Assembly: GCF_016903815.1 (NCBI RefSeq) | Contig: NZ_CP069973.1 | Direction: 5' to 3' (one strand) | DNA length: 64,000 bases | DNA from: Escherichia coli | Lineage (GTDB): Bacteria; Pseudomonadota; Gammaproteobacteria; Enterobacterales; Enterobacteriaceae | Shown here: piece after piece, positions 48,148 to 62,087 of the stretch | Numbering within the stretch: the first letter of the stretch is position 1 | Layout of the letters: every line of letters begins with the position of its first letter | Notes under the pieces: generated by a model | The model's database searches: none | Seen by the model: only the letters and a program-made list of their open reading frames with translations | What the model was told of the DNA's origin: nothing | Translations under genes and position numbers: made by a program

Positions 48148-49431
48148 GCAGGGCAAGATTACGAAAGCCCGCTCCCCGCAAGGACTGACGCGAGATAGTT
48201 TCTGTCCATGGCTGCTTTTCGCATCTTACGTCTTAACCCTGCCTTGAATACCTTATCATTCGTTAAAATATTAATAGCGATGTGCCGTATCCCTGAAAAT
48301 AATTCTGCGGCGTTTCCTCTTCTTATTTTGCAGTCGTCTTCATTCATTACCACGTCCAGACGCCAGTGCAGCTTATTCTCCACGCGCCAGTGGTTTCGGA
48401 TTGCTGTGGCGAACTTCTCTGCGGTTAAATCAGCAGAACTGATATAATATCTGACCGTCATTTCTGGCTCTTTCTTTTGTTCTGCTATTATTGACCGAAA
48501 AGAGACTGCCACGCATAATTTCTTCAGTCCTTTCCATTCAAACGTGAAATCAATAAGTTCATCAGGGACATCGCAAACAATATGAAGACGGATTTCTTCT
48601 CTGCCGTGACTCTTTTCACTAATGGCGTAACTGTCATGCTCTGGATTATTTAATTCTTTCAGCGGAAATTTTTCCTCGAAGGCTTTATTTAGCCGCCCCT
48701 GGTTTCCTTTTACAGCGAATAAATAATCACCGCCCTGTTTTTGTATCTTCTCTGCAATATCTTTCTGGCAACCCATCGCATCAGTTGTGATGATTTTTCC
48801 TTTAATATCCAGCATGTTAAGAAGTTCAGGGATAGCTGTAATTTCATTGGATTTCTCATCCGTCCTGATCTGTCCGATGACCAGACTGTGCATTGTTGAG
48901 AACGCACTAATGACATGAATCGCTCCCTTGCGGCGACTCTTGTCATAAGAATGCCGGAGTGTTTTTCCATCAATTGCGATGACGTCTTTATCATCTGAAG
49001 TATGGCAATCTCGCATCCAGTTAATAAAACACTCGTGAAATTTTGAAGGACTGATACAGGATATAACTCTGGCGATGGTATCGTGAACAGGAATACCATT
49101 ATCAAAATCACCATATTGCTTCAAAAAATCGAGATGTGTTTCCCCAAAATCCTCTATATCTTCCCAGCCTTCTGCACCCGAAATAACGGCACAAATAGTC
49201 AACAGCAGAATATCCGATAATTTATGTTCCACTTTCCAGGCTTGTCTGTAATCGGGGATAATAGAAATATGTTCCATCAATTTTTTAAGTTCCATTTTGT
49301 TCTCCTTAATTATGTAAGGAGTATTTGATCATGTATAAGCAATAAAAAACAGCTTTAGGTAATGAGGAATATCTCCATTTTTAAACATAAAATGCGAATT
49401 ATTTAGTACAAAAAGTGTACTTTGGATGATC
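48148..49431 (-). mobile_element. ISAs1-family insertion sequence (H-repeat element), complete, ~1.28 kb, with imperfect ~20-bp terminal inverted repeats
   Basis: 378-aa H-repeat-type transposase flanked by 'gcagggcaagattacgaaag' (48148-48167) and the reverse complement of 'ctttggatgatctttccctgc' (49411-49431); boundaries are approximate. Confidence 0.7.
48159..49295 (-). CDS. ISAs1-family (H-repeat-associated) transposase
   Basis: 378-aa ORF '[51 protein letters not shown]...', typical of H-rpt transposases of Rhs elements. Confidence 0.85.
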
Positions 49432-49660
49432 TTTCCCTGCCCTGAGTGGTGACATTCACCCGCCCGCGTTCTTCATAGCCGGTGCGCTGTGATGTGTCGT
49501 CCGGGCTGAAGATACCCGTCAGCCTGCCGGATTTGTCATACGCATACTGCGTTTTGCCTTCCGGCGTGATGACTTCTGCCAGGCGGCCTGTGGCGTCCCG
49601 GTTGTAGAGAATAGTTTCCTCCCGGCCGTTAATCTTCGCGGTACACAGGCAGCAAGTATT
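49432..49660 (-). pseudogene. Rhs core fragment (~70 codons), truncated copy of part of the prePAAR-Rhs gene
   Basis: DNA nearly identical to 55857-56075 (encoding '...ILYxRDAxGRLAEVITPEGKTQYAYDKSGRLTGIFSPD...'); abuts the ISAs1 end. Confidence 0.8.
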
Positions 49661-49675
49661 ACACCGGATTAGGTA

Positions 49676-50233
49676 TCACTCTGTTATTTTTATCATATCC
49701 TTAAATGCTTTTTTCGGTACCGGGCCTCTAGATATAGCAAGACCATAGTTCGCAAAATCAGAAACAAGGCTAAATTTTTTTTTCTCATACTGGTAGTTCA
49801 TACACATCAAAGCTAATCTTACGCTGCTTACACCACTTAGCTCATCGCAAATATTTCTCTCTTCAATATCTACAACACGAATAGCATCGAATATTTTATT
49901 CAATGAATCAAAGTATTCAAAAAAACAAAACGCTTTGTTTTTTATCTCATTGATAACAAACTCACTACCTTCAAAAGAATGCAGCAAAGATATACTTAGT
50001 CCATCACACACACGGTTACGGATGTAACAATCTATTTCTTTTTTCGGTGGTTCATTGCAAAAATTTTCGAACACAGGATGAACACCTGTGTTTATAAAAA
50101 AAATATCACCTGTACTCTTTTTTTGAAAATTTATACAATTTACAAACTTATCATGAACTTTATAAAAATCATTGTTACCATTTTTTATAAACCCATTTTT
50201 GTTTAAAAAGTCACCAATCGGTTTGAGTTTCAC
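49676..50233 (-). CDS. Putative immunity protein cognate to the orphan Rhs C-terminal toxin
   Basis: 185-aa low-GC ORF immediately downstream of the orphan toxin module; function inferred from position. Confidence 0.5.
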   Translation of the reverse strand: MKLKPIGDFLNKNGFIKNGNNDFYKVHDKFVNCINFQKKSTGDIFFINTGVHPVFENFCNEPPKKEIDCYIRNRVCDGLSISLLHSFEGSEFVINEIKNKAFCFFEYFDSLNKIFDAIRVVDIEERNICDELSGVSSVRLALMCMNYQYEKKKFSLVSDFANYGLAISRGPVPKKAFKDMIKITE

Positions 50234-59422: not shown

Positions 59423-59449
59423 AAAATACTCCCTGATAATCTGAGTGAA

Positions 59450-61351
59450 TCAGTTGATGAAAACAGAACCGCCCACGATGGTGATGCCATCCTTCGACAG
59501 CCTGATTACCGTCGATTCCCCGACCTGTAGCTGAATGCCATCCGGCGTCAGCGCAATTTTGCTTTCCTCCACGGCCAGCAAAATTTCCTTAATCGCCGTA
59601 TAAGCCTGTATACCGTCGCCTTCGCCACCATTGTTTACAGCGTCAACATGCACTGAACCGGCAATCGTGCCTCTGTCCTGAAAAACATCCTCAGATAAAG
59701 ACCCTTTTAGTACGCCTGTGATTTTGTGGCCTTTTTCCACCGTAAGAAGGCGGTTACCTTCCTGGATCGTGACTGTCTGGTCATTTTTTACGGTTTCGCG
59801 GTGATCGTGTTTTACGGTGGTGGTACGGTCGTTGAGCACTTCGGTATCCATGTTCTTCTGCGCGTGGATGTAGACCTGTTCTCTCCCTGTCGCATCATCA
59901 AACTTCAGCTCATTAAATCCGCTGCCCATGTACGTTTTGGAGCGGATGGTCATCTGCGTCTTTGTTCCCGGCAGGCTGCCGGGGGTGCGGTTTTCCTGGT
60001 GGTAGGTGCGCCCCATAATGATCGGCTGGTCCGGATCGCCGTTGAGGAAGTCTACAATCACCTCCTGACCCACACGCGGTATCGCCAGGTGGCCAAAACC
60101 GGTGCCTGCCCACGCCTGTGCCACACGGATCCAGCACGAACTGTCTTGGTCTGCCGGGTTATAACGGTCCCAGTTGAACTTCACCCGCACGCGACCATGT
60201 TCGTCGCAGAAGATTTCCTCGCCTGCCGGTCCTGTCACGACAGCGCTCTGCGGGCCGTCGACCAGCGGTTTCAGCAACGGCTGTGGTCGCCATGTTCTGT
60301 CTGCCGGGATCACCGCAAAATGGTTCTCCAGCGCCGTCCCCGCTCCCTGCCGTCTTGGCACCGCCTGTGGCTGTTCGCCGTGCAGTTCACTTGCCACCAC
60401 CTGCCATTCCCGGTTCAGGTTCGCCTGCGGATGCCCCGTCAGCACAATTCGTCGTCCCGGCCATATCTCCGGCGAGCGACTCATTCCCCGCGCGGTTTCT
60501 GCATTGTTTCGCCAGCCGTCCATCTGCCAGCGGGCAAAGTTCTGCCCGTGGGCACCCTTGAAACGTCCGGGGTAGTCATACACTTCATACTGCGTGCGCT
60601 GGTAGTCCTGGTGCTGGCCTTCCTGTTCAAAACGTCCGGCCCAGCCGGGGCGTTTAAAGGTGTAGTCTTTGGTCACCACGGAAGAAGGGCGGATTTGTGC
60701 GCTGTAGCGGAACTGGCTGATGCAGAGGGTGCTCACCTCGGTACGGGTGTTCGGGTTCCATGGGATTTCAAAAGATTCGGGCAGATGGCGGACTGTGTCG
60801 CACAGCACCAGGCTCTGGTCGGTACTTTTGTAAGCATGCTCCTCATAAAAGAAGATGCCTTCCTCCGCCGCCATCCGGCACAGGAAATCGTAATCAGTCT
60901 CACCGTACTGGACACAAAACTCACGGGAAGGATGCGGCTCGCTGAACAGCGGACTCCATTCGGTCACCCCGTTTTCCTGCAACATCGTGCCGAGGATGCT
61001 TTTGATGTCCTCGTTCTGGAAGATACGGAAGTTCTGGCGCAGACCGGCACGCCACAGCGGCGGGTGCACCTTCATGCTGTACAGCATCTGGTTTTTGTCG
61101 TTCTCCCCGAGTTCAAACCAGGTCACCACGCCTTTCACCCGGCGCTGTACTTCATCGCCCTGCCATATCGTCAGGTAGGCCATTTTGTCCAGCACCTGCG
61201 CAAATTCAAGGGAGAGAAACTGCTGGCTGACCAGGGAGAGATCGAGGGAAAAGAGCGAAGAGAGTGACTGGTTCAGATGAAAGGAAACCACCGCAAAAGC
61301 ATCCGGCGGCAGGCCGTCCACTTCCAGTGTGAAACGTAATCCGGTTGACAT
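59450..61351 (-). CDS. vgrG: T6SS spike protein VgrG
   Basis: 633-aa ORF with VgrG-type N-terminus 'MSTGLRFTLEVDGLPPDAFAVVSFHLNQSLSSLFSLDLSLVS' and gp27/gp5-like regions. Confidence 0.9.
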   Translation of the reverse strand: MSTGLRFTLEVDGLPPDAFAVVSFHLNQSLSSLFSLDLSLVSQQFLSLEFAQVLDKMAYLTIWQGDEVQRRVKGVVTWFELGENDKNQMLYSMKVHPPLWRAGLRQNFRIFQNEDIKSILGTMLQENGVTEWSPLFSEPHPSREFCVQYGETDYDFLCRMAAEEGIFFYEEHAYKSTDQSLVLCDTVRHLPESFEIPWNPNTRTEVSTLCISQFRYSAQIRPSSVVTKDYTFKRPGWAGRFEQEGQHQDYQRTQYEVYDYPGRFKGAHGQNFARWQMDGWRNNAETARGMSRSPEIWPGRRIVLTGHPQANLNREWQVVASELHGEQPQAVPRRQGAGTALENHFAVIPADRTWRPQPLLKPLVDGPQSAVVTGPAGEEIFCDEHGRVRVKFNWDRYNPADQDSSCWIRVAQAWAGTGFGHLAIPRVGQEVIVDFLNGDPDQPIIMGRTYHQENRTPGSLPGTKTQMTIRSKTYMGSGFNELKFDDATGREQVYIHAQKNMDTEVLNDRTTTVKHDHRETVKNDQTVTIQEGNRLLTVEKGHKITGVLKGSLSEDVFQDRGTIAGSVHVDAVNNGGEGDGIQAYTAIKEILLAVEESKIALTPDGIQLQVGESTVIRLSKDGITIVGGSVFIN

Positions 61352-62087
61352 AGCAACCTCCAGTAAAATGAATAATGATCCGTACCGTACAACTGCGGAT
61401 AATGTGATAAGCGGGACGACTTCAGACGTTATTAGGGAAGGAACAGAAAATGCTATGGTTATGTGAGAATTTTGTTTAAATATTACTTTACAGAAACGGG
61501 TGTCTGTTCAGTCAAAAAAATAATCACAAGCTCAACCTCTTGTTTCTTGGCGTTATTCAGGACAGGTACGCATATCACAACGAGTAACAAAAACGCAAAG
61601 TTAAACCAATATTCATAATATATTTTTATTCACAGCAATAAATAATCCAATTAACATTATTAAAATGAATGATTGCATAAGAAATATATGCTACCGCTCC
61701 ACCCTGATAACATGATCTGCACATTGCACATCTTAACGTTGTTAAATACTGGCTCAATAGTGGATATTTTAAATTAGGAATTTATCAAATTCACTTGATA
61801 AATAGATTGAGTGAATAATATAACAATTAATGATGATTAATCGCGATTAAATTATTCATTGCTTTATATGATAGATGGCTTGTTTATAACGATGAAAATT
61901 TAGAAAGGGCATTGTGATCTACAATTGGAAGAAACACAGATTTAACTAAGTTTCATATACAAACATCTCGTGAAACTTTGAAAAATAAAAGCCTTCGATA
62001 TTTCATATGTTTAATAAGTTTTTCTCTAATTTGTTGATCAACAATACCAGGAGGTGATGCACCACGCCCTGAATTTGAACTTAATAA

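Follow-up and report, generated by a model that had tools for sequence, protein, structure and literature searches.

A partly decayed T6SS auxiliary effector island carrying a prePAAR-Rhs pseudogene at the nfrB-cusS site of Escherichia coli

In Escherichia coli K-12, nfrB is directly followed by cusS, as an earlier note on this DNA had stated, and sequence comparison places a spacer of 149 bp between them. In the E. coli DNA analyzed here (64,000 nucleotides of contig NZ_CP069973.1, referred to as the window), a block of about 14 kb occupies this junction, which raises the question of what it is, whether it still works and how it relates to the empty K-12 state. The K-12 alignment ends at position 48102 and restarts at 62113; thus, the island comprises 48103-62112 (14,010 bp). 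The earlier note had recognized the block and its size, while the ends it gave, 48148 and 62087, correspond to the ISAs1 end and to the base before the cusS stop codon. The island genes and elements described below and both flanking genes lie on the minus strand. On one side, 46 bp of island DNA (48103-48148) separate the K-12 homology, which runs to 48102, from the ISAs1 homology, which begins at 48149, and other island-bearing genomes carry about 70 bp extra at this place. On the other side, an AT-rich region (61352-62112, GC 0.32) extends from the 5' end of vgrG to the right boundary; its portion 61352-61804 is common to paralogous vgrG loci, and a promoter scan 5' of vgrG found no more sigma-70-like sites than expected by chance. 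The flanking cusS (62088-63548; NF007345, 985 bits) has its last codons altered at the junction, which read ...VIMLPERE-stop versus ...VITLPA-stop in K-12, and nfrB (45724-47961), interrupted in frame by a TAG at 46831-46833, is itself a pseudogene, annotated by PGAP as 'internal stop'.

The gene content and the nfrB-cusS site identify the region as a T6SS auxiliary effector island with the order vgrG-eagR-prePAAR-rhs-immunity, followed by orphan modules and ISAs1 sequences. Profile searches returned the T6SS domains expected from the earlier note: vgrG (59450-61351, 633 aa) is intact and matches TIGR03361 (625 bits against a cutoff of 186, 1e-187); eagR (58961-59422), encoding a DUF1795/DcrB-family Eag chaperone (Pfam PF08786, 1.1e-25), immediately precedes the prePAAR effector gene; and the latter (54112-58941) encodes a class I prePAAR-PAAR-Rhs protein with prePAAR_I, PAAR, DUF6531 and YD repeats. 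The composition is indeed mosaic, with a GC content of 0.57-0.60 in vgrG and the rhs core, 0.31-0.40 in tips and immunity genes and 0.53 in the flanks. Very probably, what we see is the Rhs element that E. coli carries at this site, an auxiliary module supplying cargo to a T6SS with its core genes at another place. A complete tssA-M, hcp and vgrG cluster was found at aspV/yafT in NZ_CP103521.1, a genome that matches 16.8 kb of the window with 100% identity, the cluster being read there and not in the window's own genome. Over residues 1-529, the island VgrG shares 92% identity with that of the cluster, and the C-terminal ~100 residues of the two are unrelated; the island protein would thus share the gp27/gp5 core and differ only in its cargo-binding C-terminus. 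By homology to studied systems, the prePAAR-Rhs protein would rely on EagR to shield its N-terminal transmembrane helices, and its PAAR domain would cap a trimer of the VgrG encoded next door. Secretion, toxicity and immunity are accordingly proposed here by analogy for the window's island.

This locus is already in print. It corresponds to the Rhs 'position 4' (nfrB/cusS) with clade IV rhs, for which displacement of C-terminal tips has been described (Jackson et al. 2009, PMC2935791). The chromosomal site is the same; there too, rhs is followed by a GC-poor region with dissociated tips and core fragments, tips vary by strain and pseudogenes are recorded. We find no difference in kind, and the window holds one allele among many, combining an attached tRNase tip, an amber codon at position 740 and, downstream, a deaminase immunity gene, an rhs2 stump and a nuclease-fold tip. 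A second source (PMC7216683, citing Uchida 2013 and Ma 2017) describes the vgrG1 island of EHEC EDL933, with vgrG1 (z0707), eagR (z0706), rhsF and rhsG (z0702). There, as in the window, a DUF1795 gene and a phylogenetically distinct rhs come after vgrG, the genes sit apart from the T6SS core island, and the VgrG shares at least 90% identity with that of the core cluster. We equate both islands on the basis of this gene order and of an O157:H7 match at the junction. They differ in the C-terminal tip: in RhsF, that paper found none of the known motifs there, whereas the tip in the window is recognizable as a tRNase of the CdiA-CT(EC869) type. The prePAAR and Eag families were defined in bioRxiv 10.1101/2020.10.28.356139, and the island resembles Salmonella Rhs1-SciW and P. 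protegens RhsA-EagR1-VgrG1 described there in the motif AARxxDxxxH, a single N-terminal TMD region, PAAR, the YD-repeat shell and the adjoining DUF1795 gene and vgrG; unlike in these systems, the reading frame is broken and the motif begins at residue 54 of the annotated frame. The K-12 RhsA-E elements with H-rpt (ISAs1-family) share the GC-rich core, the AT-rich tip and downstream ORF, and ISAs1/H-rpt at the downstream end, but belong to clade I and lack eagR and the prePAAR N-terminus. The island rhs scores 34-126 bits against NF041261 (cutoff 2000). Separately, a clade I rhs element of the K-12 RhsA-E kind is present at 8-4024 of the window.

Is the effector still functional? The earlier note had taken the 1609-codon frame as open and implied a working main effector, and neither view survives, as an in-frame TAG at 56722-56724 interrupts rhs at codon 740. 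Because intact 1609-aa Rhs orthologues carry CAG at this codon, the gene is a pseudogene, and PGAP marks the identical rhs gene 'internal stop'. The CAG-to-TAG change halts translation within the Rhs shell; therefore, the toxin cannot be delivered. Upstream of the stop, the prePAAR motif AARLGDEIQH occupies codons 54-63 (58753-58782) and the hydrophobic TMD region codons 64-105; since the motif lies within the first ~15 residues in Tse6, the true start codon of rhs is uncertain. In an intact protein, the shell would hold the C-terminal toxin, to be freed after the autocleavage motif DPLG-(18)-DPLG (codons 1444-1469). We weighed the reading that the island still works, either because the amber codon is read through or suppressed, or because a 739-aa prePAAR-PAAR-half-shell joins up again with a C-terminal part that is initiated internally, so that the tRNase is delivered. 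An 836-aa ORF with a GTG start does follow the stop; vgrG, eagR, the immunity gene and the tip, including its implicated histidines, are intact, and this tip differs by one residue from that of intact orthologues. However, one polypeptide forms the whole closed Rhs shell in studied cases, the window has no suppressor tRNA (a tRNA-Arg is the sole tRNA in 38-64 kb), and amber codons of this kind also interrupt two other conserved genes of the window, allD and nfrB, both of which have a pseudogene annotation. Besides, rhs in APEC O78 is broken independently, by a stop near codon 699, suggesting that such decay recurs. We consider a working locus highly unlikely and treat rhs as a pseudogene.

The toxin tip that remains attached (codons 1471-1609; 54115-54531) is a BECR-fold tRNase closely homologous to CdiA-CT(EC869), with a match to PDB 7VMC chain B at E = 8e-41 over 125 residues. 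His216 and His281, implicated in CdiA-CT(EC869) catalysis (PMC9071432), have their equivalents in the tip (ATKH and KHALYK). The immunity gene that the earlier note had joined to rhs (53582-54115) does overlap the rhs stop in ATGA and encodes a CdiI(EC869) homologue (PDB 7VMC chain C, E = 3.4e-18). By this likeness, which covers toxin domain, both histidines and immunity homologue, the tip would be an EF-Tu/Ts-dependent tRNA acceptor-stem nuclease neutralized by the product of the overlapping gene. In the reference pair (PDB 7VMC; PMC9071432), the tRNase depends on EF-Tu/Ts and GTP and belongs to a type V (CDI) system, where a CdiA filament carries it, whereas the tip in the window is mounted on a T6SS Rhs. 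In addition, the immunity protein has diverged far more from CdiI(EC869) than the tip from CdiA-CT(EC869), and cross-protection is therefore not assured. The attached module occurs in 135 of 5,426 complete E. coli genomes, the set used for all population counts, and elsewhere this vgrG-eagR-rhs scaffold bears other tips: APEC O78 has a zincin-like one, and O111:H8 one with a REase fold.

Downstream, the orphan toxin and immunity ORFs noticed earlier form an AT-rich array, in which earlier states of the locus are recorded. Next to the attached pair, orf147 (52659-53102) and ~80 nt of a tip 3' end (53103-53183) represent a displaced MafB19-type deaminase module (52659-53183): in four other loci (L089, L090, L091 and L094), an identical gene starts 12 nt downstream of an intact Rhs of 1613 aa that bears a PF14437 tip, and homology to these deaminase loci starts at 53183. 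The main gene has thus lost this tip, and orf147 is the orphan immunity gene that stayed behind. A second, tandem rhs (rhs2) has been cut short at an ISAs1 end. Its 5' stump (51455-51832; Pfam PAAR, 2e-9) lacks prePAAR and TMD, is 95% identical over 51473-51772 to 57925-58224 of the main rhs, and has the N-terminus (MTSTYILSSWLVLHDL...) of the full-length 1401-aa rhs2 in L090. The small conserved orf71 (51832-52047) clusters with variants of 71-116 aa (104-116 aa in other strains) and holds the matching place ahead of rhs2 in L090-L092. As for orf122 (50973-51341, GC 0.33), a putative orphan immunity gene, profile searches gave no match, and the UniRef name of its exact-sequence cluster, from one source, is 'SMI1/KNR4 family protein'; the roles of orf71 and orf122 are suggested by position and, for the latter, by this name. 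An orphan rhs 3' fragment (50245-50943) follows, joining a conserved core end (50587-50914) to a displaced tip with a PD-(D/E)xK nuclease fold (50245-50586), and 12 nt past the tip end starts a DUF4304 gene (49676-50233; Pfam PF14137, 7e-9), its putative immunity partner. This module, present in 114 of the 5,426 genomes, records a further state, as does a 212-nt mid rhs core fragment (49439-49650) fused to a complete ISAs1. The fragment shares 94% identity with the main rhs at 55858-56069, and PGAP annotates it as a partial pseudogene.

The complete ISAs1-family element (ISEc1-like / H-rpt; 48149-49439, 1291 bp) has a transposase ORF at 48159-49295 (NF033564, 416.8 bits against a cutoff of 70) and imperfect terminal inverted repeats (CAGGGCAAGAT / CAGGGAAAGAT), and is 96.5% identical to the copy in L088. 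A solo ISAs1-like terminal segment of ~90 nt (51387-51477), 81% identical to the complete IS end at 49354-49444, truncates rhs2. With a complete element at one end and a solo end inside the array, movement of the block by the ISAs1 transposase, as a composite transposon or IS-bounded island, could be envisaged. Yet the IS is at the nfrB end only, and no IS end, integrase or direct repeat was found at the cusS end; all genomes examined have the block at one and the same chromosomal site, and its matches are nearly all chromosomal (plasmid places, 32 of 29,356). We regard such movement as extremely improbable; the ISAs1 ends fused to rhs fragments indicate that the IS inserted into the array and was not its carrier.

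As for frequency, the gene order is not the unusual arrangement that the earlier note had supposed: vgrG-eagR lie beside cusS in 2,249 of the 5,426 genomes (about four in ten), and the island-cusS and nfrB-ISAs1 junctions occur in 2,435 and 2,473, respectively, against 2,326 with the empty K-12-type junction (at least 80% coverage of one 301-bp query). The exact 16.8-kb composition is rare (121 genomes). Near-equal frequencies of occupied and empty alleles, the spread of the former over diverse lineages (O157:H7, O111:H8, O121, APEC O78) and visible decay of the locus, with WL297 lacking vgrG, eagR and most of rhs, would suit an ancestral occupied state from which the K-12-type junction arose by deletion. 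However, independent deletions would leave different scars, whereas the empty junction is uniform as matched by that single query; it is also common to K-12 and Escherichia whittamii, including 27 K-12-specific bases and the cusS 3' end. Moreover, the composition is foreign (AT-rich modules of GC 0.31 and a core of 0.60, versus the flanks). Deletion is thus unlikely in our judgment, and we favor the empty junction as the original state.

Altogether, the window's copy is an ordinary, partly decayed example of a published locus. What is added here in detail is the CdiA-CT(EC869)-like tip with its CdiI(EC869) homologue, the pair of PD-(D/E)xK tip and DUF4304, the role of orf147, the rhs2 stump and the T6SS core at aspV in a genome with the identical island. 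What may still function comprises vgrG, eagR and the putative immunity-type ORFs that remain intact, and these could give protection from kin still firing the toxins.

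The block between nfrB and cusS occupies a site that has been described before. Jackson et al. 2009 (PMC2935791) defined nfrB/cusS as Rhs locus 4, the sole clade IV locus of E. coli, and illustrated C-terminal tip displacement with it in their Figure 5, where some of the strains have core fragments downstream; in EHEC the equivalent genes are named vgrG1 (z0707), eagR (z0706), rhsF and rhsG, and these VgrGs have been assigned to T6SS-2 (PMC7216683). With the site and the EHEC genes both published, the island was therefore already known. It is a textbook example of how Rhs tips are displaced, at an E. 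coli hotspot already in print, and is of little import beyond annotation. What is added here is allele-level detail: the amber codon, the assignment of the tRNase tip and of the gene for its immunity protein, where the orphan pieces came from, and counts across the population. An earlier note, made from the sequence alone, had recognized what the island is, but the rarity and the intact effector that it implied did not stand, the in-frame stop having been missed.

In K-12 MG1655, nfrB (b0569) lies directly next to cusS (b0570), as the same note had stated, with 149 bp between them. Homology of the window to K-12 ends at 48102 and restarts at 62113, a position whose equivalent is exactly the base at which the MC4100 match begins, and the extra block therefore spans 48103-62112 (14,010 bp). 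A block of ~14 kb had been correctly placed between the two genes, but of the limits first proposed, 48148 marks the end of ISAs1 and 62087 the base that precedes the cusS stop. Replacement of 27 bp of K-12 sequence at the junction includes the last cusS codons: with the junction (62088-62112) inside cusS, the window CusS has 482 aa (PGAP start) and ends in ...VIMLPERE, and the K-12 protein has 480 aa and ends in ...VITLPA. At 48148/48149, the stretch from the ISAs1 end to the nfrB-side flank is ~70 bp longer in other island-bearing genomes (11203-11272 in locus L088, from one of them), the difference being a small deletion beside the IS in the window. Every island gene is on the minus strand, and the mosaic GC content described earlier was confirmed, with 0.57-0.60 in vgrG and the rhs core, 0.31-0.40 in the tips and immunity genes and 0.53 in the chromosomal flanks.

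Comparison of the cusS-nfrB junction among complete E. coli genomes (n=5,426) contradicts the notion of a rare arrangement, since vgrG-eagR lies next to cusS in 2,249/5,426 and the empty K-12-type junction is present in 2,326/5,426. The island-cusS junction was found in 2,435 and the nfrB-ISAs1 junction in 2,473 of the 5,426 genomes; the whole 16.8-kb stretch, at >=80% coverage, in 121; the tRNase tip module in 135; and the nuclease-fold tip with DUF4304 in 114. On the same scaffold, APEC O78 carries a zincin-like tip and an independent stop at ~codon 699, and O111:H8 carries an intact restriction-endonuclease-fold tip; in strain WL297, vgrG, eagR and the greater part of rhs are gone. Only one other Escherichia species, E. 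whittamii, was recovered with nfrB, and its junction is empty, with the 27 K-12-type bases present; this single outgroup supports an insertion into a probably ancestrally empty site. Judging from the strain names, the lineage is probably ST410.

The VgrG spike gene (61351-59450, minus strand), proposed from the sequence, was borne out by profile search, with a full-length gp27/gp5-like VgrG/TssI match well above the curated cutoff (TIGR03361, 624.8 bits against 186.35, residues 7-517; TIGR01646, 442 bits). The DUF1795 EagR chaperone gene (59422-58961, minus strand) was likewise recovered: its product belongs to the DUF1795/DcrB family (PF08786, 1.1e-25, residues 7-137), and 19 nt separate the end of the gene from the start of rhs, the immediate proximity to a prePAAR effector gene that is expected of an Eag. 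Chaperones of this family bind and stabilize the TMD of the effector and are needed for export, a role that is predicted for the window eagR. The suggested check for a core T6SS cluster, run on an identical-island genome rather than on the window's own, found a complete set: NZ_CP103521.1, with 100% identity to window 46800-63600, carries at aspV/yafT, ~355 kb from the island, tssA, B, C, E, F, G, H, J, K, L (icmH/DotU) and M, together with tagH, two hcp genes, a vgrG and a clade I rhs, and no core gene is flagged as a pseudogene. The island VgrG and this cluster VgrG share 92% identity over residues 1-529 and are unrelated over the last ~100 residues, which is the pattern expected if the island encoded an alternative, cargo-specific spike for the same machine. 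A literature search found no paper treating aspV, T6SS-1 and T6SS-2 together. Upstream of vgrG, ~450 bp (61352-61804) show ~90% identity to the upstream region of the paralogous vgrG at the RhsE site (yncH-vgrG-rhs, locus L003), which suggests a conserved leader or regulatory region travelling with vgrG; scans of the AT-rich vgrG upstream region returned 3 sigma-70 promoter sites where 4.4 were expected, and no terminator. Just upstream of vgrG stand the 11 nt TAATGTGATAA and then GCGGG, a sequence reminiscent of the 27 bp that distinguish the K-12 junction; it lies within the segment common to paralogous vgrG loci, and we judged the likeness compatible with chance in AT-rich DNA.

The main rhs frame (58941-54112, minus strand) had been rightly identified as prePAAR-Rhs. 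The prePAAR motif AARLGDEIQH (residues 54-63) is followed by a hydrophobic segment (64-105), and matches to prePAAR_I (PF25799, 1.2e-4), PAAR (PF05488, 8e-10), DUF6531 and YD repeats reproduce the class I order of AARxxDxxxH, one TMD region, PAAR and YD-repeat shell. The core ends with DPLG at residue 1444 and DPLG at 1466, 18 residues apart (TIGR03696, 2.6e-18), and in other genomes the same core bears different tips; a core end of this kind, followed by a variable tip and an immunity gene, marks the Rhs/YD-repeat polymorphic toxins. The two halves of the frame score 34 and 126 bits against the clade I 'RHS element core protein' model NF041261 (cutoff 2000 bits), which agrees with its placement in clade IV by PMC2935791. 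Class I also requires one uninterrupted polypeptide from PAAR to toxin, and this is what the window lacks: the supposedly open "1609-codon" frame has TAG at codon 740 (56724-56722), and the identical gene is marked 'internal stop' by PGAP. Codon 740 is CAG in the intact 1609-aa orthologues of two other genomes, whose tips differ from the window tip by one residue. The main rhs is thus a pseudogene of a class I prePAAR Rhs family member with intact orthologues. Three conserved genes of the 64-kb window each contain a single in-frame amber, namely allD (21885-21887, TGG to TAG), nfrB (46831-46833) and rhs (56722-56724, CAG to TAG), all of them 'internal stop' in an identical genome. Ambers in 3/3 of the window's nonsense pseudogenes were judged compatible with chance and were dropped as a significant pattern; on a rough estimate from E. 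coli codon usage, TAG would make up more than half of transition-derived nonsense codons.

CDI and Rhs systems share toxin domains. The homology check recommended for the C-terminal toxin gave, for the attached tip (codons 1471-1609), a 125-residue alignment with PDB 7VMC chain B, the tRNase CdiA-CT(EC869), at E = 8e-41, and no Pfam match. In CdiA-CT(EC869), His216 and His281 are implicated in catalysis (PMC9071432); they correspond to H237 and H302 of the 7VMC chain by a 21-residue offset that we inferred from the histidine positions in the deposited chain, and both align with histidines of the window tip (in ATKH and KHALYK). [quoted passage not shown] The coupled immunity gene (53582-54115, minus strand) was also as described, its start lying inside the rhs stop in the string ATGA; the product aligns with 7VMC chain C, CdiI(EC869), at E = 3e-18, and 'CdiI(EC869)-like immunity protein' would be a better name than the 'RNA-binding protein' assigned by PGAP. 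Past the second DPLGL, the attached tip and an orphan tip further downstream (54448-54531 and 50587-50670) share ~28 residues, ATCPI(I/L)RQ..L.NLEASRAARAASNFGK, and then diverge; this linker may serve as a recombination joint for tip exchange.

The array downstream of the immunity gene, entirely on the minus strand, can be read as the history of the locus. In four other genomes the orf147 gene (53102-52659 in the window) begins 12 nt behind the gene for an intact Rhs of 1613 aa whose tip is a MafB19-type deaminase, and in the window homology to these genomes starts 81 nt upstream of orf147. A deaminase tip was therefore displaced by the tRNase module, and its immunity gene stayed behind as an orphan. 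Further on, the rhs2 stump (the 'PAAR fragment') has 95% identity, over 51772-51473, to 58224-57925 of the main rhs. Its N-terminus is that of a full-length 1401-aa second rhs, placed after the first in other strains, which copies the first from ~codon 240 onward and so has neither prePAAR nor TMD; in the window a solo ISAs1-like end of ~90 nt (51477-51387) truncates it. Beyond orf122 lie an orphan 3' fragment of rhs that bears another tip (50943-50245) and then a DUF4304 gene (50233-49676). The orphan tip gave no Pfam match even at E <= 10, the Tox-REase families included, no NCBIfam match at E <= 0.01 and nothing below E = 0.1 in a PDB sequence search. Its AlphaFold2 model (pLDDT 92) has an alpha-beta-beta-beta-alpha-beta core, and E..D..ExK is invariant in 25 aligned homologues, so that core fold and conserved D...(D/E)xK residues together predict a PD-(D/E)xK nuclease fold. 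BLASTP found no significant similarity to the O111:H8 'restriction endonuclease fold toxin' tip, which leaves the conserved motif and the predicted fold as the basis of the nuclease assignment. An intact parent Rhs was not found, the homologues returned by a word-index-limited search being 75-196 aa only; the exact-protein context of the DUF4304 gene recovered only the window's own arrangement, and the closest variant is WL297, where a truncated rhs bears the tip. Neither Pfam nor NCBIfam has a profile model for the orphan nuclease-fold tip that is paired with DUF4304. A complete ISAs1/ISEc1-like element of 1291 bp (49439-48149) has 212 nt of mid-core rhs (49650-49439) fused to its end; the DDE transposase of the element scores 416.8 bits with NF033564 (cutoff 70), and its imperfect terminal inverted repeats lie at 48149 and 49439. 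The ISAs1 sequences and orphan toxin/immunity modules noted earlier are thus all present. No direct repeat flanks 48149 and 49439 as a target-site duplication, which fits later rearrangement, one side being the rhs fragment.

Outside the island, the window opens with a second Rhs element cut by its edge (8-4024, plus strand), a clade I member (NF041261, 2619 bits, cutoff 2000); behind it come part of an IS1 transposase gene and a ybbD-like ORF (4269-4772, 4856-5347). The element occupies the RhsD-type site (ybbA/ybbB, position 3 of Jackson). The tRNA-Arg(tct) gene (40808-40884) directly adjoins envY; the DLP12 prophage, which in K-12 lies just before envY, is absent, and there is no ompT beside envY, unlike in APEC O78 and O111:H8. 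In these two strains nfrA has an annotated internal stop (L005 3751-6723 and L006 2989-5961, respectively), and in the window nfrB is broken instead; the nfrAB exopolysaccharide/phage N4 receptor system appears to have been repeatedly inactivated in island-bearing lineages.

By homology, at an intact locus EagR would hold the transmembrane helices of the effector (definitions in 10.1101/2020.10.28.356139), PAAR would mount it on VgrG, the Rhs shell would ferry the tRNase into an adjacent cell, and sister cells would be protected by the CdiI-like protein. In this strain the translation stop at codon 740 falls within the shell, so that the toxin cannot be delivered, and the reading frames of vgrG, eagR and the putative immunity-type ORFs further downstream are still open. 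Independent nonsense mutations, TAG at codon 740 here and ~codon 699 in APEC O78, next to intact vgrG, eagR and every downstream immunity-type ORF might reflect selection for an 'immune but unarmed' state, the locus acting as an immunity-gene island whose truncated prePAAR-PAAR product may still cap the VgrG spike; we regard this as an improbable reading, and neutral decay is an alternative explanation of a disarmed rhs beside the same intact genes. The observations concern a clinical lineage that is widespread (more than 100 complete genomes are identical) and that carries a disarmed EF-Tu/Ts-dependent tRNase effector and intact ORFs in immunity-gene positions, a combination that bears on the predicted T6SS competitiveness of the lineage.
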